Below the pieces are notes generated by a model. That model was not told the DNA's origin, did no database searches, and saw only the letters and a program-made list of their open reading frames with translations. Both the position numbers and the translations under genes were made by a program. Source: Candidatus Limnocylindrales bacterium (GTDB taxonomy: Bacteria > Chloroflexota > Limnocylindria > Limnocylindrales > CSP1-4). From it: a stretch of 64,000 nucleotides of DNA. Position 1 is the first letter of the stretch; each line of letters starts with the position of its first letter. Where the stretch lies: the NCBI GenBank assembly GCA_038915165.1, contig JBCLDE010000003.1, positions 12,008 through 76,007 of the forward strand, in the 5' to 3' direction. Shown here in pieces: positions 1 to 52,722 of this stretch.

Positions 1-2116
1 CGGGCGGAGCTAGATCGAGCCCAGACAGGGACGACCGCAGCGTCGCGATCAGCTCGGACCCCTCCTTCGGCCCCATCGGGCGACTCGCCGTCGCGTCCCT
101 GGCGAACCGTCGGGTCGCGCTCGCCACTGCGGCCTTGGCAACCTCAATCTCTCGCTCGTGCCTGATCCGAGTGTTCTTCCATGCCAGCTCCTCCGCATCC
201 GACTTCTTCTGGGCAAAGAGGAGCGAAGTCTTGGTGGGCGTCCACGGCTCAAAGGCAAGCCTTGGGAGGCCGACCACAGCTCTCACATTGAAGTGGTTGA
301 AGAGGAACAAGCGAGCGTTCAGATTCTCCTTCGTCGCGAAGAAGCTCTCCGGGAGCACCACCCCAAGGCGGCCTCCCGGCTTCAGCAGCTGGTACCACCT
401 CTCGAGAAACAAGTTCTCCGAGTTTGCGCTTGCAGCGAGCTCGAATGTGGAGGCAAGTGTCGCAGCAGTTGCAGGCACAAGGGTGATGCTGAACGGAGGA
501 TTCGACACCACGGCATCGAAGGCGACAGCGACCTTCTTCGAATACACGGCGGCGTCAGCCGGGTCGCGACCTTTCAAACGCTGGTCCCGGAATCGGTCCA
601 GCGCCGAAAGCCCGTCAGCTTGGTACACGTGCGTGTTGCCATCGCGGTGAAGGACCATGTTGACTTTCGTTGCCATTGACAGCAACTCCGAGTCATCGAT
701 CCCGAAGATGAAGTCCTTTGCCCATCGATTGGCATGTTCGGAGGGAGCCTTATCCCTCAAGAGCTCTCTCACATCTTCGTTGCGCGAGATCGCTGCTCTT
801 TCGCCCTCGATCCGCTGGGTGATGAGATGCATCGCCGATAGGAGGAAGGTCCCGGAGCCGCAAGACGGATCGATGATGTAGGGGAATCGATCGTCGTAGT
901 GCGCGTTGCTCGTGATCTTCTCGATGGCTAGTTCATCTAGCTCGAGCGCCATGATCACGAACGCCGCGATGTTGGCGTGCGTAAAGAAGAGCCCCTTCGA
1001 CTGCTTGAAGCCGTCGCGGGTGATCCCCTCAAAGAAGCCGCCAAGTACGTCTCCACCGCGAGTTGACGTCAGCGAGATCCCCTGGAGAAGCTCGACTACG
1101 AACGCAGTTTGGTCAGGACTGAACTTCCTTCCGTCGAGCTCACTTGTCGCGCCACCTTCGCCGGGATTGAGATAGCGCGCGTAGCCGCGCTTGTAGAGGT
1201 CGTTGATCCTCTGGAACGTGCGGAGAGTAGTCTCTGGCTGAACACCCACGTAGCAGCGCTGGAATTCGTAGCGTTCTCCGCCATTGGTCGTCTTCTCGTC
1301 GTAGATCTTGGCGAGGAACAGCTTGACGACATGCTCGTAGATGTCGTTGTCGGGCGTCGACCCCCTCCAAAGCACGTCATGCAGCCGCTTGCGGAGGCGC
1401 TCCAGCTCAGCGCCTCCAACGTCAACCCGCAAGTCAACCCCTCCTCCGTTGACAAGGTGCTCGTGGGTGGCATCTCCGTAGCTGACGGGGAACTCGGCAG
1501 CCGCGGGTCTTCCATTGCTGACCCAAGTCGAGTACTTGTCTCCATCGGTGAAGCCGATGGCTAGGACAACGGGGCTAGCAGTCTCGGAGACCCGCACGGT
1601 GGTGTAGGCGAGAACGCGACTGCCCTTCTCGTGAGGCGCGATGTTGAACAGCTGGCCCTCGATGAACCTGTCCGGGTCCACTCCGAACTCGACCGGACTC
1701 TTGACTTCGATGAGCGCATATGGCGTGCCATCCGGATAGTTCACAAGAATGTCGAGTCGAGCACCGAGCTTCGGCCGTCCGATGGAATACGCCTTCTCGA
1801 GTTCGATGTTGGCGGGGAGGTACCCACCCTTAGTGCACAGCCAAGCCACGAGGTAGGCGCGGGCCGGTTCCTCCTCGCCCACGTAGGTACTGATGGCCGA
1901 GTGCAGGATGATCTCGTCGCCATAGCGTACGGTGCCGGTTGAGACGTCGAGCTGGACGTGCCGCCCCTCGGGGTCTAGCTCGAGAATCGCCTCCCGCAAG
2001 CGTGCGAGGCCGTCGGGTCCCATCACTCCGAGAGGCGCGATGGCCGAACCTCGTGGCGAACGCCGTCGGCGAGTCCTTGCCTTCGCTTGGGTCAACTCAG
2101 TTCGTCCGCGTGGCAC
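1..2116 (-). CDS. PD-(D/E)xK (HsdR_N-like) + N6-adenine DNA methyltransferase fusion, copy 1; 3' end outside the window
   Basis: Mirror of 50281..52396. The frame is open to nt 1. Motif I IIDPSCGSGTFLL and motif IV VVSNPPFS lie inside this part. Confidence 0.8.
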   Translation of the reverse strand, partial: MPRGRTELTQAKARTRRRRSPRGSAIAPLGVMGPDGLARLREAILELDPEGRHVQLDVSTGTVRYGDEIILHSAISTYVGEEEPARAYLVAWLCTKGGYLPANIELEKAYSIGRPKLGARLDILVNYPDGTPYALIEVKSPVEFGVDPDRFIEGQLFNIAPHEKGSRVLAYTTVRVSETASPVVLAIGFTDGDKYSTWVSNGRPAAAEFPVSYGDATHEHLVNGGGVDLRVDVGGAELERLRKRLHDVLWRGSTPDNDIYEHVVKLFLAKIYDEKTTNGGERYEFQRCYVGVQPETTLRTFQRINDLYKRGYARYLNPGEGGATSELDGRKFSPDQTAFVVELLQGISLTSTRGGDVLGGFFEGITRDGFKQSKGLFFTHANIAAFVIMALELDELAIEKITSNAHYDDRFPYIIDPSCGSGTFLLSAMHLITQRIEGERAAISRNEDVRELLRDKAPSEHANRWAKDFIFGIDDSELLSMATKVNMVLHRDGNTHVYQADGLSALDRFRDQRLKGRDPADAAVYSKKVAVAFDAVVSNPPFSITLVPATAATLASTFELAASANSENLFLERWYQLLKPGGRLGVVLPESFFATKENLNARLFLFNHFNVRAVVGLPRLAFEPWTPTKTSLLFAQKKSDAEELAWKNTRIRHEREIEVAKAAVASATRRFARDATASRPMGPKEGSELIATLRSSLSGLDLAPP

Positions 2117-34433: not shown

Positions 34434-34445
34434 GAGGCGACCGCC

Positions 34446-38808: not shown

Positions 38809-38809
38809 C

Positions 38810-40366
38810 ATGACGACGAAGAAGCGTTCGACGAAGACCGCCGGGCCGGGGCCGAAGGCGACCACGAAGACCGCGCCGAGTGACCGGACCTACGACGCGA
38901 TCGTCATCGGGGGCGGGCACAACGGCCTGGTCAACGGTGCGTATCTCGCGAAGTCGGGGCTCAAGACCCTCATCCTGGAGCGGCGAGGACTGGTCGGCGG
39001 CGCGGCCATCACGGAGGAGCTGCACCCGGGCTTCTCGTTCACCACGTTCTCGTAGGCGCTGAGCCTGCTGCCGCCGGCGATCATCCACGATCTGGAGCTC
39101 ACCAAGCACGGTTTCATGCCGCTGCTGATGTCGTCCACCTTCGCGCCGATGGAGAATGGCGACTACCTGTGGCTCGGCCAGGACCACGGCCAGAATCTCA
39201 AGGAGATCGCGCGCCACAGCCAGCACGACGCGGACGCGTACGAGCAGTACTCGCACGACATGGAGCAAGTCTGCCAGGCCCTCAAGCCGCTGCTGGACGC
39301 CGCGCCGCCCGACCTCTTCAGCGACGAGCCCGAGGAGCTGCTCGCGCTCGCTTCGCTCGGCTCGCGCCTTCGCAGGATGGACAAGCGCGTGCTCCACAAC
39401 GCAGTCCGGCTGCTGACCGGCAGCGCGGCCGACTTCCTCGACGACTATTTCGACTCGGAGATCCTCAAGGGCTACCTGGCTTCGTCGAGCATCATCGGGA
39501 CGAAGGTCGGACCCCGATCTCAGGGTTCGGGGCTCGTGCTCCTGTACCACTCGATGGGCGAACACGACGGTGAGTTCGGTGCGTGGGCCTTCCAGAAGAG
39601 CGGCCGGGCGACCGGCGTCGCCCTCAGCGACGGCAGCGAGTACCACGCCGCCACCGTGGTCAGCGCGCTCGATCCGCGACGCACGTTCCTGGAGCTGGTG
39701 AACCCGCGCGAACTGCCGACAGACCTCGTCGAGGACATCAACCGCTTCCGCTTCCAGGGCACCTCGTCGAAAGTCAACTTCGCGCTCGACGGTCTGCCGA
39801 AATACCCGGCGCTGGGCGATCGAGGCGATCAGTTCCGTGGATTCACGAACATCGGTCCGTCCATGGATTACCTGGAGCGCGCCTTCGACGAGGCCAAGTA
39901 CGGCTGGTACAGCTCGCGTCCGTATATCGATGGTGCCATCCAGTCGACGATCGATCCGGACATGGCGCCGCCCGGCAAGCACGTCATGAGCTGCTTCATC
40001 CAGTACACGCCCTACCAGCTGCGCGAGAGCGACTGGGACACGGAGCGCCACAACCTTGGCGACACCGTCCAGCGGACGCTGGAGTCGTTCTTCCCGGGGT
40101 TCAGCGACCTCATCCTTCATCGCGAGGTCGTCACACCGCTTGACATCGAGCGCACGGTCGGGCTGAGCGAGGGCAACATCTTCGCGGGCGAATTCCTCGC
40201 CCCGCAGATGTACTTCTTCCGCCCGGCACCCGGCTGGAGCCAGTACCGGACGCCGATCGACGGCTACTACCAGTGCGGGTCGGGCACGCACCCGGGCGGC
40301 TGCGTCATGGGCGCGCCGGGCAAGCTCGCTGCGGAACGGATCCTCAAGGACCGCGCCAGGGCCTGA
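38810..40366 (+). pseudogene. CrtI-family FAD-dependent oxidoreductase interrupted by an in-frame TAG, copy 2
   Basis: Dinucleotide-binding motif [23 protein letters not shown]. ORFs 38744..39055 and 39116..40366 share one frame and are joined by TAG 39053..39055 (..FSFTTFS*ALSLLPP..). A GGMG-containing segment expected between ..GAWAFQK and SGRATGV.. seems absent. Confidence 0.7.
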
Positions 40367-40382
40367 GGGGTCCTTCCGGGGC

Positions 40383-40466
40383 AGCTGGCGGAGCGAGGGC
40401 GGGGCGGGCGAGCTGGCGGGGCGGGCGAGCTGGCGGGGCGGGCGAGGGCGGGCGAGCTGGCGGGCG
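40383..40466. repeat. Imperfect GC-rich tandem array, copy 2
   Basis: Mirror of 11931..12014. Confidence 0.85.
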
Positions 40467-40865
40467 AGGATCCTGTCAAATGCGCGTGTGGCGAGCGTAA
40501 GGCACCTGCCAAGCCCGATTCGCGACCAGTGGATCGGGTGTCCGTACCGCTATGAGCGTGACTCCAGCACGTTCACGGGTCGATCATCGGGCTCTGGACG
40601 ATCTGGATGCGCCCACCGCTCGCCTTATGCACATCTGCCAAAAACCGTCCGCTGGCCCTCGCCCTCGCGGGCCATCGCCCTCGCTGGCCATCGCCCTGGC
40701 GGGTGTTCCGCTTGGGAACGAGATTGCGATGAACCCCTCGTGGACGCGGCCCCAGGCGACAGATCTCGCCAATCTGCGGATCCATCCACGCTCAGCTGTA
40801 GGAAACGTGTTACGCACCCCACGGAACGCGCCGCCGACCGGCGCGGCGGGCCCGGAGCTGACCGG

Positions 40866-40994
40866 CGCAGACTCGACGACGTCGACCTCGAGGTTCCCGA
40901 GGGCACGATCCTCGGATTGCTCGGCCCCAACGGGGCGGGCACGACGGTCCTTCCGTCAACGTACGGACCGTCCCTCCTACCGAGCGCTCGCTAG
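40866..40994 (+). pseudogene. ABC-transporter ATPase N-terminal remnant, copy 2
   Basis: ..RRLDDVDLEVPEGTILGLLGPNGAGTTVL.. The Walker A has lost its Lys (GPNGAG-TT), and a stop follows 15 codons later. Confidence 0.45.
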
Positions 40995-41629
40995 TCGCGA
41001 ACGGCGATCGACCCTCCAGCGAGACCGCTCACGATCGACAAGAGCAGATCGACGGCCTGTTCGTCGGTCAGGCCTGCGCCGGTCAGCGAGCGCCACGTCT
41101 CGAATGCCATCGCGTGCGCCAGCACGACCAACAGGGTCGGTCGCGTGCCCTCGACCGCGACCGACCATCCGCTACTGATCGCATCGAACAGGCTCGCCAT
41201 CCGGAGGTCGAAGAGGTCCGGCGCGGTCGGCGGCGGCGCGGTTGGATCCACGTCGTACAGGACATTGCGGAGCATCCTCTCGTTCGCCCGATACCAACCG
41301 AACAGCTCGGTGAGTCCGAGGCGCAGGCGATCGGTCGGATCTGCGATCCTCGCCCAGGGATCCGGCGCCGGCATGCCGGTCACCCGGATCCCGTGCTCGG
41401 TGCAGGCGAGGTACAGCGTACCCAGATCGGGGAAGTGGGCGTAGACGGTGTGGCGTTGGACGCCGGCGCCGTCGGCGATCGCCCGGATGGTCGTCCGCGA
41501 TGGGCCCACGGTCGCGTGCAGGTCGAAGGCGGCGGCCGTGATCCGTCGGCGCGTGTCCTCGAATGACTCAAGGCGTCGGCGCATGCGGTATGGACGACGT
41601 CTGGGCAAAGGAGTCGGTTGCTCAGTCAT
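40991..41629 (-). CDS. TetR-family transcriptional regulator, copy 2
   Basis: Mirror of 10768..11406. Confidence 0.85.
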   Translation of the reverse strand: MTEQPTPLPRRRPYRMRRRLESFEDTRRRITAAAFDLHATVGPSRTTIRAIADGAGVQRHTVYAHFPDLGTLYLACTEHGIRVTGMPAPDPWARIADPTDRLRLGLTELFGWYRANERMLRNVLYDVDPTAPPPTAPDLFDLRMASLFDAISSGWSVAVEGTRPTLLVVLAHAMAFETWRSLTGAGLTDEQAVDLLLSIVSGLAGGSIAVRD

Positions 41630-41730
41630 GTGCAGCGAAAGTATTGACGACAGGGGCGTTCCGCGCTACCTTCGGTCCGCGTTATCAATTGCACACGGAT
41701 GTGTAGTCATAGTCGCGTGGAGGTGCCATC

Positions 41731-42234
41731 ATGCCGGTCGTCGAGCGCACTCGGTTCCTGGTCCCGCCGGACGGCGGCGACGTCATCTGGGATGGGCCGA
41801 TCGGAACGTCCGTCAAGGTTTCGACCGAGTCCACGGGCGGCGCCCTGTCCATCTGCGAGATGCCGATGGCTGCGGGGTACATGGTCCCGCCGCACACGCA
41901 TCACGACACGGACGAATGGTCATACGTCCTTGAGGGTCGGGTCGGGGCGCGTGTTGGGGAGGACGAGTTCACCGCCGAGCCCGGATCCTGGATCCTCAAG
42001 CCGCGCGGCGTGATGCACACCTTCTGGAACGCCGGTCCGGAGTCGGCTCGGATCATCGAGTTGCTGACGCCCGGGCGCTTCGAGTACTTCTTCCGCCGCA
42101 CGGTCGAACTGGCGTCGAAGGACGAGCTGACCGACGAGGTCATGGGCGCGCTGGCGGAGGAGTATGGAACGACGGTCTCGATGGACTGGGTGCACGACCT
42201 GGCTGCCCGCTACGGTCTCGAGGTGACCCTCTGA
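41731..42234 (+). CDS. Cupin-domain protein, copy 2
   Basis: Mirror of 10163..10666. Confidence 0.8.
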   Translation: MPVVERTRFLVPPDGGDVIWDGPIGTSVKVSTESTGGALSICEMPMAAGYMVPPHTHHDTDEWSYVLEGRVGARVGEDEFTAEPGSWILKPRGVMHTFWNAGPESARIIELLTPGRFEYFFRRTVELASKDELTDEVMGALAEEYGTTVSMDWVHDLAARYGLEVTL

Positions 42235-42305
42235 CATCTCGGCCGATCGTCGGACAAGGAAGAACCCCGGGTGGTCGGGCCCGGGGTTCAAGGTGAAAGC
42301 GGTCT

Positions 42306-42351
42306 TGGTTGCGGGGAGAGGATTCGAACCTCTGACCTTCGGGTTATGAGC
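42306..42351 (-). pseudogene. 3' fragment of initiator tRNA-Met (att-site remnant), copy 2
   Basis: Mirror of 10046..10091. Confidence 0.75.
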
Positions 42352-42983
42352 TTAGCACGTGCCGCCCCGGCCTGTCACGCGCCGTACCCGGCGGTGCCGC
42401 TCCGACCTCAGCCGGGTCGATTGTCCTCCCTCGCTGCCACCACCTGTCCCAGCTCATCCTGGGGCGTCCGTGACCATTGCGTGACCATTCGACCAGGGGA
42501 GCGGCAACCGGACGCCCGGTCACTTGCCCAGGCGCGAGCGTCGGCACGGTCCATGCAGATATCGCACGTGTTCAGGACCGAACACCTGAGACCGTCACCG
42601 GCCAGGACGGCAAGTCCTACCCCGGCTTCCGTCCCCGCCCCGACCCGATCCTCGCAGCCCGAGCCGCCAAGGTCGCGCCCGCCGACTACATCGACCTGAT
42701 GCCGCCCGCGGAGCAGGAGTGGGGACGGGCGTTCCTCCGCGGCGCATGGCCCCGAAGCCGCAGCCGAGTGGGCAACACAAGTGCCGCTCGATCGGTTCCA
42801 GGGCGTCTCCGTGGCGGGATGCTGGCCCCAGGGCGGCCGGGAGCACGTGGAGTGGCACCCGTGGCCAGTGCAGGACGTAGAACGGCCCCGCTGCCGTCGT
42901 GTCTCCAAATGGAGACATCCCGACCGGGGCCACGGCGTAGGCGAGGAACAGGCGGGCGTCTCGCTGGAAATGGCCGACGCGGA

Positions 42984-43868
42984 TCACCGACCAGAACCCG
43001 GCCGCGACGGACGCGGATCCGGGAGTTCGGTCGGTTGGTCCTGCTCGGGCTTTGACGGCTTTGGGAACCGTGCGCGCAGCGTCATCAGCGTGACGGGCCC
43101 GTTCGCCCCAACGAGCGCCCAGTCGGCCCAGCCGTTGGTCGGACGCCCCCGGACGACCGCCGCGGCGGCGCTCGGGGAGGCGTAGCTGGTGCCGTGGACC
43201 TCGAGCTGCCCATCGCTGCCAACCGTGGCCTCCGCATTGAGATCCGGGTCGGTGAAGACGAGCACGTCCCCCACGGTCAGGGCGCCCGCGGCGATGAGGT
43301 CCGTGACCGTCACGGCGTAGCTCTTCTTCCGCCCGTGGCCCTTATCGCCGGGCGGATCGAGCGGGTAGCCAAGGAGACGCAACACCCGCCGGATGACGGT
43401 GACATCCATCTCGAGGCCGGGGCGTTCGTAGTCGGGTAGCGTCTCGTCCCTCGGCTCCACCTTGTTCGCCAGCTGGACCGCCTTGGCGTCCATCGCTAGA
43501 CGCCACAGGCGGCCCTCGAGCCAGCCTACTTGGGCCGACGTGAACCCGAACCGCGCGTTGCCGCGATCGACCAGGACGGCCCGGCGCCAGCCAGGCTTGC
43601 CTGCCACGTGCCGCCCGATCCGCTTGCGGAGGCCCTCAGCTTGACCGACATACACCGTTGGCGGTTGATCTACAGCGGTGTTGGGCGGCCAGAGGAGGAT
43701 GTACACTCCGGCGCTGTCCCACGAGTCGTCGAGGGACGCTGTGCTCCCCTGCTCCACCACGGCCAGTCGAAGCGCCCCCCGCGGGTCGTACAGAACAATC
43801 GGAAGTCGGGTCGAGGCTGGCACGAGCACGGTGAGGGGCAGATCGTCGATCGAGCTAGGCTCGGGCAT
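42984..43868 (-). CDS. GIY-YIG nuclease-like protein with DUF4357-like C-terminus, copy 2
   Basis: 294 aa from ATG 43868. ..GVYILLWPP..TVYVGQAEGLRKRIGRH.. (GIY..YIG..R pattern). C-terminus ..VHGTSYASPSAAAAVVRGRPTNGWADWAL... Confidence 0.65.
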   Translation of the reverse strand: MPEPSSIDDLPLTVLVPASTRLPIVLYDPRGALRLAVVEQGSTASLDDSWDSAGVYILLWPPNTAVDQPPTVYVGQAEGLRKRIGRHVAGKPGWRRAVLVDRGNARFGFTSAQVGWLEGRLWRLAMDAKAVQLANKVEPRDETLPDYERPGLEMDVTVIRRVLRLLGYPLDPPGDKGHGRKKSYAVTVTDLIAAGALTVGDVLVFTDPDLNAEATVGSDGQLEVHGTSYASPSAAAAVVRGRPTNGWADWALVGANGPVTLMTLRARFPKPSKPEQDQPTELPDPRPSRPGSGR

Positions 43869-44008
43869 CCTGGGGGCTCCGTCGGTTTGGGCCCGGTGCG
43901 ACTCGGGGATTGGCGGGGCCCTGCGTGGGGCATCGTATCTGAGACCGAGCTGCGATGTCACTCAGAGTCTGCTAGACCACAGACGTGACCCGGCCCTAGC
44001 GTCGCGGC

Positions 44009-44275
44009 ATGCCCCCCGCCTCCGATCCGCTGTTCCGTGCCTTCGGCGCCGCGGTCCGGGCACTCCGGACTCATCGCGGCTTGACGCAGGAAGCCCTGGC
44101 CGAGCGGGCCCAGCTCCATCGGACGTACATCACCGAGGTGGAGCTTGGCCGCCGGAATGTCAGTCTGTACAACATCGAGCGCCTGGCCACGGCCCTGGAG
44201 GTCTCGATGCGAGACCTCATCGGCGATGCGGAGGCGCGGGCAGGAGGCGAGTCAACGCCGTCTTCGGACGAGTGA
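44009..44275 (+). CDS. XRE-family helix-turn-helix regulator, copy 2
   Basis: Mirror of 8122..8388. Confidence 0.85.
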   Translation: MPPASDPLFRAFGAAVRALRTHRGLTQEALAERAQLHRTYITEVELGRRNVSLYNIERLATALEVSMRDLIGDAEARAGGESTPSSDE

Positions 44276-44322
44276 GCCAGGCTCGGGACCGCGCCTGCGC
44301 CCGAGGTCGAATACGACTGGAT

Positions 44323-45297
44323 CTACACCCCGATGGCCGCCGCCACATCGACCCACGCCCGATCGGTCTCGCCCTCGAGCCGACGGAGGTAGACGGTCGT
44401 CACCGCGAGGGAGGAGTGGTCGAGGAATGCGCTCACCGCCTCGATCGTCTCGCCGGCGTCCCGGCGGAGCTTGGCCGCGGTGTGGCGGGTGATGTGGACG
44501 CCCGACGGCGCCAGACCGGCATCCCGGAGGTACCGCTGGAAGCGCGCGTAGAACGTCGACGAGGTAACGCCCCGCGATCCCGCCCCACCTTGCCAGAGCG
44601 AGGCCGGCTGGCCCATCTGCGCCAGCTCGAGCCCAGCGTCCGCCAGCGTGGCCCGGAGCGCCTCGTAGGCGGGACGTGGCAGCTCGCGCCGGCCGCGCCG
44701 GCCGCCCTTGCCGCGATACGAGTAGAAGGGCGTTCCGTCCTCGACGCTGATGTCCCCGGCGGTCAGGCCGATCACCTCGGCCCGCCGTCGCCCGGTCAGG
44801 AAGAGCGTCAGCAGGATCGCCCGATCCCGGCGACCAGGGACGGTGTCGGGGACGACGGCCAGAAGCCGGCGGACCTCGTCGGCCGACAGGCCCCGAGCCG
44901 GAGCCGGGACGGACCGTGGTCGCTCGAGGGCGTCGCACGGGTTCCCGATGACCAGGCCCATCCGGATGAGGAAGCGATAGAAGGAGGACAGGCAGGCGAT
45001 CCGGGCGCCGATCGTGGTCGAGGAGGGGACCCGACCCGAGAGCCCGATCCCGTGCGCCCAACCCATGACGTCCGGGGGGACGACCCGGTCGGGCGTCTTG
45101 CCGAGTCTGGCAAAGAACGGCCAGAGCATCCGGCTGTAGCCCTCGACGGTCCGCCGGGAACCCGAGCGGTTCCCCTTCTCGACCAAGAAGGCGTAGAGCG
45201 CCTGGTCCCAGGTTGATGGGTCGCCGGACGGGAGTGCGGGAAGAGGCTGAGCGGTCATCGGGCACCTCATCGTGTGGTTGGTGCCCACATGAGTCAC
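44323..45297 (-). CDS. Tyrosine recombinase / phage-type integrase, copy 2
   Basis: Mirror of 7100..8074. Confidence 0.9.
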   Translation of the reverse strand: MTHVGTNHTMRCPMTAQPLPALPSGDPSTWDQALYAFLVEKGNRSGSRRTVEGYSRMLWPFFARLGKTPDRVVPPDVMGWAHGIGLSGRVPSSTTIGARIACLSSFYRFLIRMGLVIGNPCDALERPRSVPAPARGLSADEVRRLLAVVPDTVPGRRDRAILLTLFLTGRRRAEVIGLTAGDISVEDGTPFYSYRGKGGRRGRRELPRPAYEALRATLADAGLELAQMGQPASLWQGGAGSRGVTSSTFYARFQRYLRDAGLAPSGVHITRHTAAKLRRDAGETIEAVSAFLDHSSLAVTTVYLRRLEGETDRAWVDVAAAIGV

Positions 45298-45524
45298 TCA
45301 GGCGGCGGGAGAAAGCAACACCATGCCGAGATCGTGTCTGAGAGACCGGGTCAAGGGGCTCCTGCAGCGGGCGTTCGCGCTCCGGGACCTGAGTGAGGTT
45401 GACCCTGACGCGATACCAGAGTGATGAGCGCCATCGAGATCACGCGCATCGTCGGATCGCAGAATCGCGCGCCGAATCCGTGAAGCAGGCATTATTGGCT
45501 CCGCGTCGTGGGGGTGAGAATCCA

Positions 45525-46397
45525 ATGGACAAATGCGCCGGCCGCATCGACCTTCGCCGCCTTGCGATCCCCTCCTTCGTCGTGGTCGTCGCCGTGTTCT
45601 CCGGTCTGCGCCTGCTGAGCGTCGAACCCTGGGCGATGCCCGCATACGACGTGTACGCGTACTGGACGACCCGCGACGGCTTCGATTACGCGGCCACCCG
45701 GCCGGGCGCCACGGGCGCCTACCTGTACTCACCGGTCTTCGCCCAATTGATCGCCCCGCTGACGGCGCTCCCGTGGCCGGTCTTCGCGGGCGTGTGGACG
45801 GCCCTGATCGCCGCTCCGCTCATCTGGCTCGCTGGACGGTACGCGATTGCCCTGCTGATCCTCCCGCCGGTCTTCATGAGCGTGGCGCTCGGCCAGCTGG
45901 ACATCCTGTTCGCGGTCGTCGTCCTCCTCGGGCGGCGCTGGCCGGCCGTCTGGGCGCTGCCCATCCTGACCAAGGTCACGCCCGGGATCGGCCTCCTCTG
46001 GTTCCTCATCCGGGGGGAGTGGCGGTCGCTCGCGATCGCGCTCGTCGCGACGCTCGCAGTGGCGGCCGCATCGGCGGCGCTGGATCCGGCCGGCTGGGCC
46101 GGCTGGCTCGCGATGCTCATGCGGATGGACTTCCCGGAGTTGGGCGGCGACCTCTGGTTCCTGCCCCTCCCGCTCGGGTTCCGCCTCCTCGTCGCGGCGG
46201 CACTCATCGCCTGGGGCGCCGCCACGGATCGGCGATGGGTCCTCCCGGTCGGCGTCCTCCTGTCCCTGCCGATCGTATGGTTGAACTCGCCGACGATCCT
46301 CGTGGCGCTCCTCCCGCTCGCCGCCGCGGGCGCCCGGACACCGGCGGGCGCCGGGCTCCGGCGGAACGTCGCGTCGACACCGTCCATCCTGCCGTGA
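45525..46397 (+). CDS. Polytopic membrane protein, DUF2029 / GT87-like glycosyltransferase family, copy 2
   Basis: 290 aa from ATG 45525 (GGGGGTGAG upstream). ..YLYSPVFAQLIAPL.., ..GQLDILFAVVVLLG.., ..KVTPGIGLLWFL... Shorter than usual for the family. Confidence 0.55.
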   Translation: MDKCAGRIDLRRLAIPSFVVVVAVFSGLRLLSVEPWAMPAYDVYAYWTTRDGFDYAATRPGATGAYLYSPVFAQLIAPLTALPWPVFAGVWTALIAAPLIWLAGRYAIALLILPPVFMSVALGQLDILFAVVVLLGRRWPAVWALPILTKVTPGIGLLWFLIRGEWRSLAIALVATLAVAAASAALDPAGWAGWLAMLMRMDFPELGGDLWFLPLPLGFRLLVAAALIAWGAATDRRWVLPVGVLLSLPIVWLNSPTILVALLPLAAAGARTPAGAGLRRNVASTPSILP

Positions 46398-46416
46398 CGC
46401 CGCCTGGAGACGTGGC

Positions 46417-46611
46417 TCAGACAGGGGATATGAGGTCGGTCACGGGCCCGCGTTGGCCCCGCGATCCAGACGCCCTCCCGCTCCAGCGCACGTGGATGAA
46501 CTGGCTGCGCAGCGGAAGGAGCCCGCGGATGGCCTCGATCGTCCGGGGCGCGGCGGATTCCCAGCGGGCGCGGAAGTGGAGATCGCCGGCCGTGATCGTC
46601 AGGTCGCCCAT
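46417..46611 (-). pseudogene. DUF3830-like protein, N-terminal fragment with frameshift, copy 2
   Basis: Mirror of 5786..5980. Confidence 0.45.
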
Positions 46612-46786
46612 CCGCGGAGAATAGCGTCGCTCGCGGGCTACACGCGAGGTGCCTCGCTCGCCCCGCCGTCGCCGCGCCGGCGCGACCCTCGCCGCGCCCG
46701 CCCCGCCGTTGCCCAGCACTCCTGCCCATTCCCGGGAGTGTCGCCGCGCCGGTCACGCTCGCCGCGCCCCTCACCCCGCTGTCTTC

Positions 46787-46968
46787 CCGCAATTCTCCCC
46801 TGGTGGGCGTTAGGCAACGCCGGAGTTGCCGTCGTCACTCATCCACGCCCCCGGCGCTGCGATTCGGTGGTTAATGGCCTCCGGGTGGACGTAAGGCAAC
46901 GACTGACGCCCCGCGAGCGGTCCGCACAGGCGGGTCCGTGCGTAACGCCACCGGGGTGAGAATTGCGG
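46787..46968. repeat. Inverted-repeat-bounded ~180-bp element, copy 2
   Basis: Mirror of 5429..5610. Confidence 0.6.
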
Positions 46969-46974
46969 AACAAT

Positions 46975-47079
46975 CGGGCGGGCCGGGGCGGGCCGGGCTG
47001 CGCCGGGCTGCGCCGGGCCGGGCGGGCCGGGCCGGGCTGCGCCAGGCTGCGCCGGGCTGCGCCGGGCCGGGCTGCGCCG
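46975..47079. repeat. GC-only decamer tandem array, copy 2
   Basis: Mirror of 5318..5422. Confidence 0.85.
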
Positions 47080-47120
47080 CACTCGTCGAACCGACGGTCC
47101 CCTGACTCGTTCGCCGTGCG

Positions 47121-47270
47121 GTGCTCCTGACCCCGAATCAGGTGACCGCCGCTACCGGGCCCAGCGGCCTCGCGCCGAAGACGCTCGACTGGTATCAGAT
47201 GATCGGCCGCCGCTTCGCTCGCATCCAGGCCGAGCGGGGCGCCGACCCTGCCCTCGGCGCCTCAACGAGC
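47121..47270 (+). pseudogene. Integrase N-terminal (SAM-like) fragment, copy 2
   Basis: ..LLTPNQVTAATGPSGLAPKTLDWYQMIGRRFARIQAERGADPAL.. resembles the LSPxTxxxY N-terminal module of tyrosine integrases. No catalytic domain follows. Confidence 0.3.
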
Positions 47271-47464
47271 CGCCTGACAACGCGGGTCCCTCCTCAGCCG
47301 GTCTCCTTGGACATCTGGACCAGCCGCCGCACCTCTGTGGCGGTCGTCACGGCCGTGAGCACGACGGTCGCTGCGACCGAGATCCGCACGATGGTATTGA
47401 TGGCGTGCGGCACACAGGGTGTGTCGGCAAACCCCAACTTCGTGGCGCTGCGCTCACCCCGATC

Positions 47465-47551
47465 CGACAGCCATGCCCAACCCGAGCGTCGGACCGCTGC
47501 CCGACGGTTGTTCACGCCGAGCTTGGCGTAGATGCTCTTGGTGTGCGTTCG
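47465..47551 (-). pseudogene. LuxR-type HTH C-terminal fragment, copy 2
   Basis: Mirror of 4846..4932. Confidence 0.4.
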
Positions 47552-47913
47552 TTGCCCGTCGGCGCCGCGGCCGAGGCCCAGCCTTTGGAGCCGAGGCGCG
47601 GCGCCGCGCGCGGTCGGCAGGGGAGCCCGGCCGCTGCGGCGCCCCTCGGTCGCTCGTATGACGGCTAAGGTCACTGCCTGGAGAGGACACTCGCCCAGGT
47701 CGATTCAGGTCATCGGACCCGAGTGCTCGTCTGTTCAGGCCCCGGGGCGTTTACGCAGGGCCCGCTCGGCCTGCCCGGCGCGATCCGGCCATTCGTTGCC
47801 GGCCCACGGGTCGTAGTCGGGGTCCTACTCCCGCTGCGGGCCACCCGCGCCGAGGCGACGAGCCTGCGGTTCACGCTTGATCGGCAGGCTCCACCCAACT
47901 ACGCTCGGCACTC

Positions 47914-48804
47914 ATGGAATCGAATGGATCCCGGCTCACGCTTCCGGACCGCCCTTGTCAGCCAGGCGGCATCCTGTTGGTCGGCATCAACCCGACTCCG
48001 GTGTCCGTCGCCGCTGGCCACTACTATCAGGGTCGGCTTGGCAAGCGGCTCTGGGGCCGCCTTCGTGGCCTTGAGGCTCTGAACAAGGGTTCCGGCACCT
48101 GGGAGGACGACGAGTTCGTCGCGGCTGGCAACGGCCTCACCGATCTCGTCAAACGGCCGACTGGCGCCGCGAACCAGCTCTCAGCGGAAGAGCTCGCCAC
48201 CGGACGAACCGCCTTGGTGGCCAACGTCCGTGGCTGGCGACCAGGCCTGCTTCTCTTTGCGTTCCGTCCCCCGGCGGAGGCGCTCCTTGGCAAGAGCATC
48301 GCATCAGGGCGCGGCCCCGACTTCGAGGGCGTCCCGACGTTCCTCCTGTCACCGCCCTATGCACCCAGGCAAGTCGCCGCGGCGATCGACGTCGGACTCT
48401 TGGCCGTCATCCGCGATCTACGAACGCAGCATGGCCCACCCGGGGCCGACCCGCACCCATTGCCTCGCCAGGACCCGGACGTGACGCCGGCACCGCCCTT
48501 GGTCGCTCAGTCGGCCGTGGGTCCGACTCAGCGGGTCACCCATGCTGACCTTCGCGCTGGGCGCATCCGAGTACCCGCGCGGAGTAGCAGCGACGCAAAG
48601 TCGGTCCTCCCTCAGCAGGTCGGACGAGTTCGAATAGACCTCCGCGGCGAGGAGATGGTTGTCCAGTACAACCCAAGGTTTGGTCCCGATCGGGAGCGAT
48701 CTGGCGTCTTGAGGGTGGGAACCGCCCGCCTTGCGGGCCTGGTGACGGCGGAAGAGATCCTTCAGGTCACGGTCAACCAAGACGGAGTCGTCTGCCTCGA
48801 TTGA
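47914..48804 (+). CDS. MUG/UDG-superfamily glycosylase-like domain fused to an uncharacterised C-terminal domain, copy 2
   Basis: 296 aa. ..ILLVGINPTPVSVAAGHYYQGRLGKRLWGRL.. (GINP motif as in mismatch uracil glycosylases), ..GLTDLVKRPT.., ..FLLSPPYAP... About 110 aa of the C-terminus (..THADLRAGRIRVP..VVQYNPRFGPDRERSGVL..) have no family I can name. Confidence 0.65.
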   Translation: MESNGSRLTLPDRPCQPGGILLVGINPTPVSVAAGHYYQGRLGKRLWGRLRGLEALNKGSGTWEDDEFVAAGNGLTDLVKRPTGAANQLSAEELATGRTALVANVRGWRPGLLLFAFRPPAEALLGKSIASGRGPDFEGVPTFLLSPPYAPRQVAAAIDVGLLAVIRDLRTQHGPPGADPHPLPRQDPDVTPAPPLVAQSAVGPTQRVTHADLRAGRIRVPARSSSDAKSVLPQQVGRVRIDLRGEEMVVQYNPRFGPDRERSGVLRVGTARLAGLVTAEEILQVTVNQDGVVCLD

Positions 48805-49001
48805 CTTGGCTGCGGCCGGACCACGGCGTCCGCGCGCCGGTGCGTCCGCGCGCCGGTCGACGGGCGACATCGCGTGCCACCTGGTGTGGCCCCATCGACG
48901 GCACGATGACCACGTCGTGTCCGGGCGGAGCCTGCCCCCTCAGCTTCCGCCGCCGCGCCTACCGCGGCTTGTACACTCTCCCGACGGAGGTGCGCGCACT
49001 G

Positions 49002-50087
49002 ATGAACGACCTGGCGCTGGCGCTCACGAACGTGCGCGCTCGGATTGCGAAGTTCGGGGGGCAGACGATCGGCGAGGAGAACACCAAGCACGCCCTGATC
49101 GAGCCGGTGTTGCGAGCCCTCGGCTGGGATGTGGGAGACCTCGACGAAGTGCGCTGCGAGTACAAGCTCAAGCAGGCTGACAACCCAGTCGACTACGCCC
49201 TGTTCGTGAACGGGGGGCTGCGCCTACTCGTCGAGGCGAAGGCGCTCGGGGAGAATCTGTCCAAGTCGGCTCATCAGATCATGGGCTACGCCGGCGTAGC
49301 GGGCATCGTCGAGTGGATTGTGCTCACGGACGGGAATGAGTACCGCATCTACAACGCCTACGCCCCCGTCCACATCGACCAGAAGCTCTTCAAGCGGGTC
49401 GTTGTCGCTTCGGACGAGCCCGGACTCGCGGAGACCCTCGGGCTCCTGTCGAAGGCGCAGCTCCAGAGCACGGTGATCGATGACCTGTGGCGCGCCTACT
49501 TCGTCGACCGGCAGGTGAAGAAGGTCGTCCAGGATCTCGCCGGACTTGATGCCCCGACAGACTTCGTCAACCTTGTTCGCAAGCGGGTTCCCGCGCTATC
49601 CACGGCCGAGGTTCGGCAGAGTCTGGGACGCGCCACGCTCTCGCTGGACTACGGGACCCTCAAGTTGGCGCCGACCCTCCCGGTTGGCGCGAAGGCGCCG
49701 GTCAGCCCGCCGGCCACCGTCCCGCCGGCCGTCAAGGACGTGGGGGACAAGGACCCCGGCCCTGACAAGACGCCGTGGCGCCACGTGACCCTCAAGGATC
49801 TGATCGCGTCGGGCACGATCGCGCTGCCGCTCGACATCGAGACGACGTACAAGGGCCACCAGCTCACCGCACGCATAGAGACAGACGGCACCGTGACGTG
49901 GAGCGGCACCAGCTACGGCTCGATCTCGATGGCCGGGGCGATGGCACGCAAGTCGATCGTGGGCGCGCCACCAGGCCGCGAGTTCCAACCGACCAACGGC
50001 TGGACCTTTTGGCGCTTCCGAGACGCGGACGGAAGCCTGGCCTTCGTCGACGTGCTGCGCCAGCGCCATCTCACGAGCTCGATGTGA
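49002..50087 (+). CDS. HsdR_N-type PD-(D/E)xK nuclease domain protein with DUF4357-like C-terminus, copy 2
   Basis: 361 aa from ATG 49002 (GGAGG 11 nt upstream). ..NTKHALIEPVLRALGWD..PVDYALFVNGGLRLLVEAKALG.. (D..ExK). C-terminus ..WSGTSYGSISMAGAMARKS..PTNGWTFWRF.. is paralogous to the 42984..43868 tail. Confidence 0.7.
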   Translation: MNDLALALTNVRARIAKFGGQTIGEENTKHALIEPVLRALGWDVGDLDEVRCEYKLKQADNPVDYALFVNGGLRLLVEAKALGENLSKSAHQIMGYAGVAGIVEWIVLTDGNEYRIYNAYAPVHIDQKLFKRVVVASDEPGLAETLGLLSKAQLQSTVIDDLWRAYFVDRQVKKVVQDLAGLDAPTDFVNLVRKRVPALSTAEVRQSLGRATLSLDYGTLKLAPTLPVGAKAPVSPPATVPPAVKDVGDKDPGPDKTPWRHVTLKDLIASGTIALPLDIETTYKGHQLTARIETDGTVTWSGTSYGSISMAGAMARKSIVGAPPGREFQPTNGWTFWRFRDADGSLAFVDVLRQRHLTSSM

Positions 50088-50280
50088 TTCACGAGCAGGC
50101 TCCTGACAAGGGAGCCTGATGGGGCTCGTCGAACGCGGCCTCCATGAAGGCCAGCGGGGTTCAGGCAGGACAGGACGCTCTCACGCGCCAGCAACCGACG
50201 GACCTTGAGTCCCATCCCCACCGGCTCTCGATCGTCGAAGCCGGTTGGTACTATCGCGACGATGGTGATGGGAGGGGCGA

Positions 50281-52722
50281 GTGCCACGCGGACGAACTGA
50301 GTTGACCCAAGCGAAGGCAAGGACTCGCCGACGGCGTTCGCCACGAGGTTCGGCCATCGCGCCTCTCGGAGTGATGGGACCCGACGGCCTCGCACGCTTG
50401 CGGGAGGCGATTCTCGAGCTAGACCCCGAGGGGCGGCACGTCCAGCTCGACGTCTCAACCGGCACCGTACGCTATGGCGACGAGATCATCCTGCACTCGG
50501 CCATCAGTACCTACGTGGGCGAGGAGGAACCGGCCCGCGCCTACCTCGTGGCTTGGCTGTGCACTAAGGGTGGGTACCTCCCCGCCAACATCGAACTCGA
50601 GAAGGCGTATTCCATCGGACGGCCGAAGCTCGGTGCTCGACTCGACATTCTTGTGAACTATCCGGATGGCACGCCATATGCGCTCATCGAAGTCAAGAGT
50701 CCGGTCGAGTTCGGAGTGGACCCGGACAGGTTCATCGAGGGCCAGCTGTTCAACATCGCGCCTCACGAGAAGGGCAGTCGCGTTCTCGCCTACACCACCG
50801 TGCGGGTCTCCGAGACTGCTAGCCCCGTTGTCCTAGCCATCGGCTTCACCGATGGAGACAAGTACTCGACTTGGGTCAGCAATGGAAGACCCGCGGCTGC
50901 CGAGTTCCCCGTCAGCTACGGAGATGCCACCCACGAGCACCTTGTCAACGGAGGAGGGGTTGACTTGCGGGTTGACGTTGGAGGCGCTGAGCTGGAGCGC
51001 CTCCGCAAGCGGCTGCATGACGTGCTTTGGAGGGGGTCGACGCCCGACAACGACATCTACGAGCATGTCGTCAAGCTGTTCCTCGCCAAGATCTACGACG
51101 AGAAGACGACCAATGGCGGAGAACGCTACGAATTCCAGCGCTGCTACGTGGGTGTTCAGCCAGAGACTACTCTCCGCACGTTCCAGAGGATCAACGACCT
51201 CTACAAGCGCGGCTACGCGCGCTATCTCAATCCCGGCGAAGGTGGCGCGACAAGTGAGCTCGACGGAAGGAAGTTCAGTCCTGACCAAACTGCGTTCGTA
51301 GTCGAGCTTCTCCAGGGGATCTCGCTGACGTCAACTCGCGGTGGAGACGTACTTGGCGGCTTCTTTGAGGGGATCACCCGCGACGGCTTCAAGCAGTCGA
51401 AGGGGCTCTTCTTTACGCACGCCAACATCGCGGCGTTCGTGATCATGGCGCTCGAGCTAGATGAACTAGCCATCGAGAAGATCACGAGCAACGCGCACTA
51501 CGACGATCGATTCCCCTACATCATCGATCCGTCTTGCGGCTCCGGGACCTTCCTCCTATCGGCGATGCATCTCATCACCCAGCGGATCGAGGGCGAAAGA
51601 GCAGCGATCTCGCGCAACGAAGATGTGAGAGAGCTCTTGAGGGATAAGGCTCCCTCCGAACATGCCAATCGATGGGCAAAGGACTTCATCTTCGGGATCG
51701 ATGACTCGGAGTTGCTGTCAATGGCAACGAAAGTCAACATGGTCCTTCACCGCGATGGCAACACGCACGTGTACCAAGCTGACGGGCTTTCGGCGCTGGA
51801 CCGATTCCGGGACCAGCGTTTGAAAGGTCGCGACCCGGCTGACGCCGCCGTGTATTCGAAGAAGGTCGCTGTCGCCTTCGATGCCGTGGTGTCGAATCCT
51901 CCGTTCAGCATCACCCTTGTGCCTGCAACTGCTGCGACACTTGCCTCCACATTCGAGCTCGCTGCAAGCGCAAACTCGGAGAACTTGTTTCTCGAGAGGT
52001 GGTACCAGCTGCTGAAGCCGGGAGGCCGCCTTGGGGTGGTGCTCCCGGAGAGCTTCTTCGCGACGAAGGAGAATCTGAACGCTCGCTTGTTCCTCTTCAA
52101 CCACTTCAATGTGAGAGCTGTGGTCGGCCTCCCAAGGCTTGCCTTTGAGCCGTGGACGCCCACCAAGACTTCGCTCCTCTTTGCCCAGAAGAAGTCGGAT
52201 GCGGAGGAGCTGGCATGGAAGAACACTCGGATCAGGCACGAGCGAGAGATTGAGGTTGCCAAGGCCGCAGTGGCGAGCGCGACCCGACGGTTCGCCAGGG
52301 ACGCGACGGCGAGTCGCCCGATGGGGCCGAAGGAGGGGTCCGAGCTGATCGCGACGCTGCGGTCGTCCCTGTCTGGGCTCGATCTAGCTCCGCCCGACGA
52401 CACCGGGGAGCTTATGGCGAAGCTGCCGGCTCTAGCCAAGGTCAGCAAGGCTGTGAACACGACTGTGCTTGCAGTCCAGAGAACTGCGCGAGAGTTGGAC
52501 CTCGACTTCCTGGTAATCAGTGTCAGTATGATCGGCTACAAGCGGACGAAACGCACTGAGTACGACCGACCAAACGAGCTATTCCAGGCGATGGCGGGAC
52601 GGCGTCGTCGCCGGGCAAGAGTCCTGAACTTGAATAGGACGACGGCCGATTGGTCTATCGAGACGCCTCGCCGGGGCGCGGACGCGCTGAGTATCCTCCG
52701 ACGTTCACGAATCTGGCAATGA
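50281..52722 (+). CDS. PD-(D/E)xK (HsdR_N-like) + gamma-class N6-adenine DNA methyltransferase fusion (type IIB/BcgIA-like or type I HsdM-like), copy 2, complete
   Basis: 813 aa. N-terminus ..RLDILVNYPDGTPYALIEVKSP... HsdM-like helix bundle ..VVKLFLAKIYDEK... Motif I IIDPSCGSGTFLL and motif IV VVSNPPFS. The stop overlaps the S-subunit ATG. The start is uncertain (GTG 50281 or ATG 50374). Confidence 0.85.
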   Translation: MPRGRTELTQAKARTRRRRSPRGSAIAPLGVMGPDGLARLREAILELDPEGRHVQLDVSTGTVRYGDEIILHSAISTYVGEEEPARAYLVAWLCTKGGYLPANIELEKAYSIGRPKLGARLDILVNYPDGTPYALIEVKSPVEFGVDPDRFIEGQLFNIAPHEKGSRVLAYTTVRVSETASPVVLAIGFTDGDKYSTWVSNGRPAAAEFPVSYGDATHEHLVNGGGVDLRVDVGGAELERLRKRLHDVLWRGSTPDNDIYEHVVKLFLAKIYDEKTTNGGERYEFQRCYVGVQPETTLRTFQRINDLYKRGYARYLNPGEGGATSELDGRKFSPDQTAFVVELLQGISLTSTRGGDVLGGFFEGITRDGFKQSKGLFFTHANIAAFVIMALELDELAIEKITSNAHYDDRFPYIIDPSCGSGTFLLSAMHLITQRIEGERAAISRNEDVRELLRDKAPSEHANRWAKDFIFGIDDSELLSMATKVNMVLHRDGNTHVYQADGLSALDRFRDQRLKGRDPADAAVYSKKVAVAFDAVVSNPPFSITLVPATAATLASTFELAASANSENLFLERWYQLLKPGGRLGVVLPESFFATKENLNARLFLFNHFNVRAVVGLPRLAFEPWTPTKTSLLFAQKKSDAEELAWKNTRIRHEREIEVAKAAVASATRRFARDATASRPMGPKEGSELIATLRSSLSGLDLAPPDDTGELMAKLPALAKVSKAVNTTVLAVQRTARELDLDFLVISVSMIGYKRTKRTEYDRPNELFQAMAGRRRRRARVLNLNRTTADWSIETPRRGADALSILRRSRIWQ

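Follow-up and report, generated by a model that had tools for sequence, protein, structure and literature searches.

Does a bacterium of the Limnocylindria carry its aa3 oxidase genes on the arms of a very long chromosomal palindrome, or does the palindrome exist only in the assembly? The question is raised by a window of 64,000 nucleotides from contig JBCLDE010000003.1 of Candidatus Limnocylindrales bacterium (Chloroflexota), in which one stretch of DNA is followed, after a short spacer, by its own reverse complement. The palindrome is present in the sequence, and it is best read as a fold-back chimera that was walked by an assembler, a reading which we consider probable on comparison with related genomes (probability a little under 0.8). 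Less probable alternatives, including a genuine duplication in the chromosome, are weighed against it below.

Extent and centre of the palindrome

The sequence-only reading had described positions 1..26027 as the reverse complement of 26370..52396 under x -> 52397-x, and this is confirmed with 0 mismatches in 26,027 positions; chance is unable to yield an exact palindrome of this length. A base-by-base complement check places the end of the pairing between the arms exactly at 26028/26369, and the 342-nt spacer thus delimited is self-complementary at 126 of its 342 positions, which is the chance level. The parts of the structure are as follows:

1..26027, no strand assigned: left arm, the exact reverse complement of 26370..52396; with the spacer, the native chromosome in reverse
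26028..26369, minus strand: spacer, the middle of a PotD/F-like solute-binding-protein (SBP) pseudogene, present once and in the orientation of the left arm
26370..52396, no strand assigned: right arm, the same DNA in native orientation, running unbroken into 52397..64000

The left arm had been thought to be truncated by the window, and the outer edge bears this out: position 52396 lies inside the ORF of an 813-aa N6-methyltransferase (50281..52722), which is uninterrupted across it, so the edge is no biological boundary and the left arm is merely cut by the start of the window. The source contig has 76,410 bp, of which at most 12,410 bp lie beyond the window, and each arm therefore measures between 26,027 and ~38,034 bp.

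Synteny with close relatives, to which the sequence-only reading had also pointed, proved informative, as the region is single-copy in four sister contigs (95-99.8% identity) and has another upstream flank there. Sister contig JBCLDI010000001.1 (99.7-99.8% identical) has the same pseudogene remnant and is collinear with the left arm and spacer; it remains so through the spacer and a further 9 nt, and then continues into PotA' and ~9 kb of genes that are absent from the window. Housekeeping genes are found in this upstream flank, among them proC and ferredoxin. With PotA' it occupies 1-9760 of the sister contig, and it also includes HpcH, DinB, DUF5317, an S9 peptidase, a methyltransferase and Peripla_BP_2. 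Sister contigs JBCLDD, JBCLDG and JBCLDN likewise have the upstream flank beside PotC...cta in single copy, and more distant Limnocylindria MAGs are also single-copy, with the order U-flank - pot remnant - PotC...cta. The SBP genes of the outgroup align with the upstream sequence of the sister and not with that of the window, hence the state of the window is derived. A literature search on the sister accessions gave no match.

Judged against JBCLDI010000001.1, the sole novel junction is 26369/26370, and the left arm and spacer are native sequence read backwards. A fusion ORF, identical in that sister contig, leads to the same side of the palindrome: as it is complete only across left arm and spacer, these form the native continuous sequence. 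This ORF and an older junction nearby are placed as follows:

25777..26127, minus strand: ORF P0089, an SBP'-'PotB fusion of 116 aa, complete only on the side of the left arm and spacer
26445..26460, plus strand: older deletion junction (mirror copy 25937-25952), located by overlapping alignments and a three-way sequence comparison

The spacer matches SBP_bac_6/8 (Pfam) and aligns to the SBP gene of relatives on the strand opposite to the right arm. The pseudogene is frameshifted by an extra C (+1) within the run 26316-26323, and once the frameshift is corrected the remnant is 74-78% identical to intact SBPs. A long-read homopolymer error was considered as the source of the frameshift and rejected, since the identical extra C is present in the sister strain and there are 0 indels in 11.8 kb between the two strains; the frameshift is an inherited lesion of the pseudogene. 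In the older deletion ~0.87 kb was lost at ~10-16 nt of microhomology, and the 3' end of SBP now reads in frame into the final ~50 codons of PotB. The deletion lies only 76 nt from the junction of the palindrome, and its membership of the same chimeric event was rejected because it is present in the sister strain, which marks it as a real inherited event. In all, the pot remnant has two inherited deletions, and nested deletions are found in the sisters. Reciprocal deletions are also seen in this lineage in a GCV_T-like gene.

The centre had been said to hold no recombinase, and it does not: it is a remnant of a pot-operon pseudogene, and one has to go 18 kb to reach the first recombinase gene, that of a tyrosine integrase (44323-45297). 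Within several kb of the centre there are only the pot remnants, PotC, a YHS protein and a DksA-like protein. Up to 18 kb from the centre the sequence is free of IS, of transposase and recombinase genes and of target-site duplications, and a repeat search gave no repeats relevant to an IS- or recombinase-mediated inverted duplication.

The fold-back junction

The novel junction coincides with a short inverted repeat, whose elements are:

26019..26027, plus strand: left 9-nt inverted-repeat element GGCGGGGGC, paired with 26370-26378 in the MFE and centroid DNA folds
26370..26378, plus strand: right 9-nt element GCCCCCGCC, the junction microhomology; the sister alignment reaches 26378, 9 nt past the spacer
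26029..26033, plus strand: CTGCT, which pairs with AGCAG at 26364-26368, so that the repeat grows to 14/15

The 9 nt of GCCCCCGCC are common to the native upstream sequence of the sister and to the arm, which puts the strand switch within these 9 nt. The longer 14/15 inverted repeat contains one T.T mismatch, at 26028/26369, and the probability of that 9-mer at a given site is ~6e-5. When 26005-26378 is folded as ssDNA, the structure closes with exactly the stem of this repeat in both the MFE and the centroid prediction (z = -3.9), and the predicted stem has the classic geometry of snap-back self-priming. The two junctions can be told apart in reads by their signatures, ...CTTGAGCAGTGCCCCCGCC being followed directly by ACTGCGACTCC in the fold-back and by GCGGCCAGCCGGTCGCTCAT in the native sequence, as in the sister. 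An exact 23-mer common to the native and fold-back junctions had no match in JGI metagenome contigs.

A fold-back of this kind could have produced the contig in a few steps. The true chromosome order would be U-flank - PotA' - SBP' - 'PotB - PotC - YHS - DksA - PALP - cta genes onward. A DNA strand with its 3' end at the PotA'/SBP' border would fold back on itself, its terminal GCCCCCGCC annealing to GGCGGGGGC 342 nt upstream in a stem of 15 bp with one mismatch; GGCGGGGGC would be the template site for the annealing 3' end, and a polymerase would then extend that end, with the strand serving as its own template. A single molecule or read of this kind, or a few of them, would let the assembler pass from the spacer into the reverse complement of what it had already read. 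By re-walking the same graph edges or reads in the opposite direction it would arrive at a palindromic contig, and the identity of the arms would follow from the way in which they were built. The fold-back molecule itself may have been a library-preparation chimera or a rare dead-end hairpin product formed in vivo, and the arm would have been duplicated by the assembler, not by the genome.

This assembled chimera is favoured by the single novel junction, by the 9-nt inverted-repeat microhomology and by the size of the sister contigs, which are only 5-66 kb. Such contig sizes suggest fragmented short-read MAGs, and it is from them that we infer the platform and the type of assembler. A perfect repeat of at least 26 kb is irresolvable from short reads. 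With a contig of 76,410 bp and sister contigs of 5-66 kb, the arms were probably never observed independently, so their zero divergence is uninformative, and most likely the palindrome represents one fold-back junction, not two independently observed copies. The choice originally put forward, between an assembly or fold-back artefact and a very recent inverted duplication, is supported as a choice, and it is the artefact side that gains from the new evidence. A missed adapter or a read-through hairpin, which had been offered as one form of artefact, is a poorer fit, since the 342 nt of the spacer come from the genome itself and not from an adapter.

Some considerations speak against an artefact. 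A de Bruijn assembler usually prunes a rare chimeric branch when the native branch is well covered, hence the fold-back would have survived only with appreciable support or if the native path was broken. Real microhomology-mediated rearrangements have also demonstrably taken place at the same locus, so that a fold-back in vivo would not be far-fetched, and the pseudogene at the junction would tolerate a real rearrangement.

Known palindromes and rival explanations

Similar structures have been reported as errors of assembly or library preparation. In SPAdes assemblies of clonal M. bovis, 81 whole-contig palindromes were judged to be assembly errors (PMC9455707), as were the palindromic contigs of SAG assemblies (bioRxiv 10.1101/2023.06.06.543983). 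Fold-back artefact reads make up ~0.55-0.6% of ONT gDNA reads, stem from library preparation, recur at the same sites and may have up to ~2 kb between their two segments (PMC12870357), and palindromes arising in WGA are corrected by Pacasus (PMC6218980). As in these palindromic contigs and fold-back reads, the mirror halves here are identical, the genes are doubled letter for letter and the duplication is absent from close relatives; the assembly is a fragmented draft, and the inversion has a single junction with little or no spacer. Unlike the cited palindromic contigs, which were reported without junction anatomy, the present case has a junction pinned to a 9-nt inverted repeat and a 342-nt genomic loop. 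In comparison with the whole-contig palindromes, full symmetry of the 76,410-bp contig would need arms of 38,034 bp.

The junction also resembles the chimeras of MDA (phi29), which Lasken and Stockwell reportedly found in 2007 to be inverted, with a few to ~20 nt of microhomology at the junction and hundreds of bases between the two segments. Inverted orientation, junction microhomology and an intervening segment of hundreds of bases are all seen here. In contrast to MDA chimeras, there is no sign of sample amplification, and the sister MAGs resemble ordinary metagenome bins.

Palindromes initiated at short inverted repeats are also formed in vivo, in E. coli (Darmon et al., 2010; PMC3315005), in yeast by ODIRA (PMC10766183) and, as cited in PMC12870357, in mammalian cells (Tanaka et al., 2002). 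In sbcCD recA mutants of E. coli, palindrome-seeded inverted duplications of the chromosome arise via degradation and hairpin formation (PMC3315005). The present palindrome is like these in having a short inverted repeat beside a DNA end, a predicted snap-back stem that would prime copying of the same strand, an asymmetric centre made up of the sequence between the repeat elements, and a switch point inside the repeat. However, the in vivo cases have physical proof from Southern blots, hairpin-capped fragments and microscopy, while the palindrome here is known from sequence alone. They also come mostly from nuclease or recombination mutants or from selection for amplification, whereas the present sequence shows neither traces of selection nor a second junction or closure.

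That the chromosome of the strain has very recently undergone a real and heritable inverted duplication is unlikely, although more probable than the other alternatives. Resection would follow a break, or the stalling of a fork, at the PotA'/SBP' border, and the 3' tail would snap back at the 15-nt inverted repeat and prime synthesis; replication would convert the hairpin-capped end into a palindrome, and the replicon would regain viability by a further rearrangement beyond the window. A spacer of 342 bp reduces hairpin and cruciform toxicity relative to an unspaced palindrome. The geometry of the junction is exactly that of palindromes initiated at short inverted repeats, the pathway exists in E. 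coli sbcCD recA mutants (PMC3315005), and real microhomology deletions have already occurred in the pseudogene at this locus. Against this, the duplication is absent from the 99.7%-identical strain and from three other sisters. One junction alone cannot close a circular chromosome, so a real structure would require a second, unseen junction, and the housekeeping flank, with proC and ferredoxin among its genes, would need a new point of attachment. Nor does zero divergence say anything here if the two arms were never told apart, and stable perfect inverted repeats of at least 26 kb with sub-kb spacers are, to our knowledge, essentially unreported in bacterial chromosomes. Were the contig nonetheless to hold a genuine, just-formed inverted duplication of 26-38 kb, which we doubt, an uncultured Limnocylindria-type Chloroflexota would have two copies of its aa3 oxidase operon and of part of a defence island integrated at tRNA-Met, and snap-back priming at the 15-nt inverted repeat of the decaying pot operon would have made them. 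The contig would then offer a natural bacterial case of the pathway described in E. coli mutants, in yeast and in tumour cells, and a rare view of a palindrome forming in a wild bacterium, with neither divergence nor resolution yet begun.

It is decidedly improbable that the fold-back was real but non-heritable, with hairpin-capped or palindromic dimers coming from a minority of broken or dying cells and the stable genome single-copy. The junction geometry is identical to that of short-inverted-repeat palindromes, and Darmon et al. found such products as a minority species in E. coli (PMC3315005), but on the sequence at hand they are indistinguishable from an in vitro snap-back, and minority molecules would assemble only if the native path were broken in the graph. 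The consequences for annotation are the same as for an artefact.

A purely computational join (by k-mer overlap, or by a scaffolding or submission error) and a recombinase- or IS-mediated inverted duplication are both very improbable. K-mer sizes in common use are 21 or more, and a purely k-mer-graph join is rejected because only 9 nt perfect (14/15) are common at the junction, too short for a k-mer or read overlap. Palindromic contigs are a known output of assemblers (PMC9455707; bioRxiv 10.1101/2023.06.06.543983), but an arbitrary duplication would not fall on an inverted repeat (P ~6e-5); a synthetic or planted duplication is unlikely for the same reason, the arm boundary coinciding with a native inverted repeat (P ~6e-5). 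The tyrosine integrase does lie in the arms, but no such element or target-site duplication is found within 18 kb of the centre, and gene content and synteny lead us to reject an IS- or recombinase-mediated origin.

Joined terminal inverted repeats or the hairpin telomere of a linear replicon, read around its end, are scarcely credible and are rejected on the same grounds: long reads through a hairpin telomere do yield palindromic contig ends, as in Borrelia assemblies, but here a fragment of a pseudogene surrounds the centre, the 342-nt loop is coding sequence that does not pair with itself, and four sister contigs and many distant relatives continue through the point with chromosomal synteny on both sides, unbroken in all relatives examined, where a chromosome end would have to lie.

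Gene content and copy number

The left arm contains the defence island, a tRNA-Met fragment, a cupin, TetR, an ABC-2 transporter, a redoxin, the aa3 oxidase genes, CtaG, the PALP enzyme, the DksA-like protein, PotC, the 'PotB remnant and the SBP 3' remnant. If the palindrome is an assembled fold-back chimera, as we favour, genes in the arms are to be counted once, 1..26027 being a second printing of the same DNA, and the same caution applies to 52397..64000, whose mirror may also lie beyond the left edge of the window. On this count there would be one copy each of the aa3 oxidase operon, PDC-S14, the tyrosine integrase, the HSDR_N/RAMA gene and the beginning of the methyltransferase. The true unique length of the contig would be ~38-50 kb, not 76 kb, and the completeness, contamination and duplication statistics of the MAG would likewise be affected. 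The locus may also serve as a worked example in which the junction, a single empirical datum, is separable from the arms, which would be the extrapolation of the assembler, and in which the native sequence is obtained via a sister strain.

The tRNA fragment in the arms was located by alignment with the sister contig:

42306..42351, minus strand: 3' fragment of tRNA-Met(CAT), 46 nt (mirror copy 10046-10091)

The fragment marks the edge of the integrated island, a boundary that both arms cross. There is no complete tRNA anywhere in the 64-kb window, and an intact tRNA-Met lies at 16310-16384 in contig L082.

Geometry and gene content of the palindrome

Compared base by base, positions 1..26027 and 26370..52396 are exact reverse complements under x -> 52397-x, with 0 mismatches, as the sequence-only reading had held, and complementarity ends sharply at 26028/26369. 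The 342-nt spacer is not self-complementary (126/342 positions), and the arm ends show no compositional break in a window of 68% G+C. Position 52396 sits within an unbroken ORF for an 813-aa methyltransferase (50281..52722) and is therefore the mirror of the window's first base, not a junction; the earlier view that the window start cuts the left arm is thus correct. By exact look-ups, the proteins of the window map to one NCBI contig of 76,410 bp, so at most 12,410 bp lie outside it. A contig symmetric from end to end would need arms of 38,034 bp and would extend past the window by 12,007 bp on the left and 403 bp on the right; this is compatible with that length rather than proven by it.

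Genes around the centre, placed by Pfam and listed outward along the right arm
Spanning the centre: solute-binding-protein (SBP) fragment
Right arm, next outward after the SBP fragment: PotC-type permease
Outward of PotC: DksA/TraR zinc-finger protein
Outward of the DksA/TraR protein: PLP enzyme
Outward of the PLP enzyme: CtaG, COX2, COX1, COX3 and a CoxIV-cupredoxin protein
Outward of the cta genes: redoxin
Outward of the redoxin: ABC-2 transporter

Among the genes outward from the centre, Pfam placed no recombinase or transposase nearby, in keeping with what had been noted from the sequence; the closest is a tyrosine integrase (44323-45297), 18 kb off. A cupredoxin extension sits at the C terminus of COX2, and a second cupredoxin domain is joined to the CoxIV-like segment (30646-32139 and 34680-35777, +), the two cupredoxin regions being ~68% identical at the DNA level.

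Synteny with relatives and decay of the pot locus

When one genome per species was scanned with the permease as query, 80 loci came up, nearly all in Chloroflexota MAGs ('Candidatus Limnocylindrales/Limnocylindria'), at 60-87% protein identity. Their gene order is PotA - SBP - PotB - PotC - (YHS) - DksA - PALP - CtaG - COX2 - COX1 and onward, and the right arm is collinear with it starting at PotC. The spacer corresponds to the middle of the relatives' SBP gene on the opposite strand, and is hence oriented like the left arm. The initial ~76 nt of each arm continue SBP, after which ~0.87 kb present in relatives (the SBP 3' end and most of PotB) is absent.

After frameshift correction, the SBP fragment matched intact SBPs at 74-78% identity in a protein search, and also P0089, a 116-aa ORF identical to the SBP'-'PotB fusion of the window and encoded by contig JBCLDI010000001.1 (GCA_038914945.1, 65,927 bp). 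Two loci of this contig (L081 and L082) are 99.7-99.8% identical to the window with 0 indels, and the 32 substitutions in 11.8 kb are a mixture of synonymous and non-synonymous changes, which identifies it as another strain of the same species and not the same assembly. Synteny with close relatives, proposed earlier as a check, was compared here: this sister strain has no palindrome, and its equivalent of the left arm and spacer runs unbroken into a truncated PotA (PotA') and ~9 kb of genes missing from the window (ferredoxin, Peripla_BP_2, methyltransferase, proC, S9 peptidase, DUF5317, DinB and HpcH). Window and sister diverge only at 26369/26370. In outgroups, the SBP genes align to the bases found upstream in the sister (GACCAGCTGGCCGCGGCGG...) rather than to those of the window, so the sister is ancestral and the window derived at this point.

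Three lesions are common to both strains: a ~1.2-kb PotA/SBP deletion at a 14-nt microhomology (seen in the sister; in the window its junction falls just past the fold-back point), the SBP/PotB deletion of ~0.87 kb, and an SBP frameshift caused by one added C. Three further sister contigs of the same WGS accession series (JBCLDD, 40 kb; JBCLDG, 5 kb; JBCLDN, 35 kb; 95-98% identity) carry bigger, nested deletions of the pot remnant. Together with the lesions common to the two strains, this shows the deletions to be real and inherited. In all three contigs the upstream flank directly adjoins PotC/YHS/DksA/PALP/cta in single copy, so that the fold-back is found in the window alone. The pot operon (PotA-SBP-PotB-PotC) shows stepwise erasure across the species group (window 25937-26460; L081 9181-10771; L083, L084 and L085), by nested, strain-specific deletions, each at 10-16-nt microhomologies, plus the +1 frameshift, and from its sequence the locus looks like a hotspot of microhomology-mediated deletion.

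The fold-back junction and its origin

The alignment with the sister extends 9 nt past the spacer into the right arm, ending at window position 26378. The native sequence, GGCGGGGGC-A-CTGCT ... (330 nt) ... AGCAG-A-GCCCCCGCC, contains an inverted repeat of 15 nt, perfect over its 9 outer bases and broken by one central mismatch. On the window + strand, ...AGCAGT-GCCCCCGCC is followed not by PotA' but by the complement of the sequence following GGCGGGGGC at 26019-26027. If a strand ended at 26378, its 9 terminal nt could pair with 26019-26027 and 5 further pairs could form past a T.T mismatch, so that the strand could act as its own primer and template. The predicted ssDNA fold of 26005-26378 closes with exactly this stem in both MFE and centroid structures (-90.2 kcal/mol, z = -3.9 vs shuffles). 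The probability of this 9-mer at a given site is ~6e-5, and the 38-kb unique half contains just two occurrences of GCCCCCGCC. The sequences that meet at the junction share only 9 nt (14/15), which makes an overlap join by computation alone unlikely; there must have been a physical fold-back molecule or read.

Snap-back priming at a short inverted repeat, whether in the course of library preparation or in a small number of broken molecules, would generate a single fold-back junction; an assembler traversing it would walk the same edges twice and yield a palindromic contig, while the stable genome would hold the arm DNA once. We favour this origin, with a single-copy genome, at a probability of roughly 0.78. 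The zero divergence of the arms is uninformative if the same edges were traversed twice. The sister MAG contigs are only 5-66 kb, which points to ordinary metagenome bins that are fragmented and probably short-read, and in fragmented short-read assemblies a perfect repeat of at least 26 kb is not resolvable from reads. Clonal M. bovis SPAdes assemblies contained 81 whole-contig palindromes deemed assembly errors (PMC9455707), and SAG assemblies show the same palindromic-contig artefact (bioRxiv 10.1101/2023.06.06.543983). In ONT gDNA, fold-back artefact reads make up ~0.55-0.6% of reads, recur at the same sites with <= ~2 kb between segments, and were ascribed to library preparation (PMC12870357).

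A real, heritable inverted duplication is unlikely. In E. coli sbcCD recA mutants, inverted chromosome duplications start from the same geometry (PMC3315005), and microhomology-mediated rearrangements clearly occur at this locus in the lineage. However, a duplication would require a second, unseen junction and re-attachment of the housekeeping upstream flank elsewhere, and it is absent from a strain of 99.7% identity. If real (doubled arm depth, no native junction), it would be a noteworthy case of natural palindrome formation at a short inverted repeat in a bacterium. Less probable still is a non-heritable hairpin product formed in vivo, whose consequences for annotation would equal those of an artefact. 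Synteny, gene content and the short microhomology (9 nt, 14/15) jointly contradict a telomere or TIR, an IS or recombinase, and a purely computational origin. The earlier choice between assembly artefact and very recent inverted duplication is supported and sharpened to one novel junction at a 9-nt inverted repeat, which is the sole empirical novelty of the sequence; in the arms, the assembler has most likely repeated single-copy DNA.

The tRNA-Met island and other arm loci

An in-frame stop divides an NAD_binding_8 N-terminal piece (38735-39055, +) from an amine-oxidase-like C-terminal one (39056-40366, +), and the sister annotation is also split (81 aa + 416 aa); the pieces are either distinct genes or parts of a flavin amine oxidase interrupted by a nonsense codon. 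In a GCV_T-like aminomethyltransferase gene, the two strains have reciprocal deletions at short microhomologies (window 38140-38321 and 38490/38491, mirror about 13907-14257; sister L082 11829/11830 and 11992-12548), with 182 bp of the window absent from the sister and 557 bp of the sister absent from the window. Given a deletion in each, it is probably a pseudogene in both strains.

An integrated island of >21.6 kb (42352 to at least 64000, its far end beyond the window) begins within tRNA-Met(CAT), of which the window holds a 46-nt 3' part only (42306-42351, mirror 10046-10091). In the sister the tRNA-Met is intact (L082 16310-16384), and after it come genes for MFS, S51 peptidase, methyltransferase and PEP carboxylase. 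The tyrosine integrase (- strand) and an HTH gene lie 2 kb into the island.

Defence-type genes of the island, in coordinate series
42984-43961, -: PDC-S14 (E = 2e-77)
48588-50087: HSDR_N + RAMA protein
50281-52722: N6-methyltransferase, 813 aa, type IIG/I-like
52650-54278: type I specificity-like protein, 542 aa
54279-54869: HNH protein
60102-61940, -: TIR + SLOG fusion, 612 aa
61968-62624, -: ThsB-like TIR protein, adjoining the TIR + SLOG fusion

Of these genes, the palindrome 'duplicates' only the ones lying left of 52396. The last two form a Thoeris-like pair with no obvious ThsA. An intergenic G+C-rich tandem array of ~10-nt period, with GGGCTGCGCC/GGGCCGGGC-type units, lies within the island at 46966-47082 (mirror 5315-5431).
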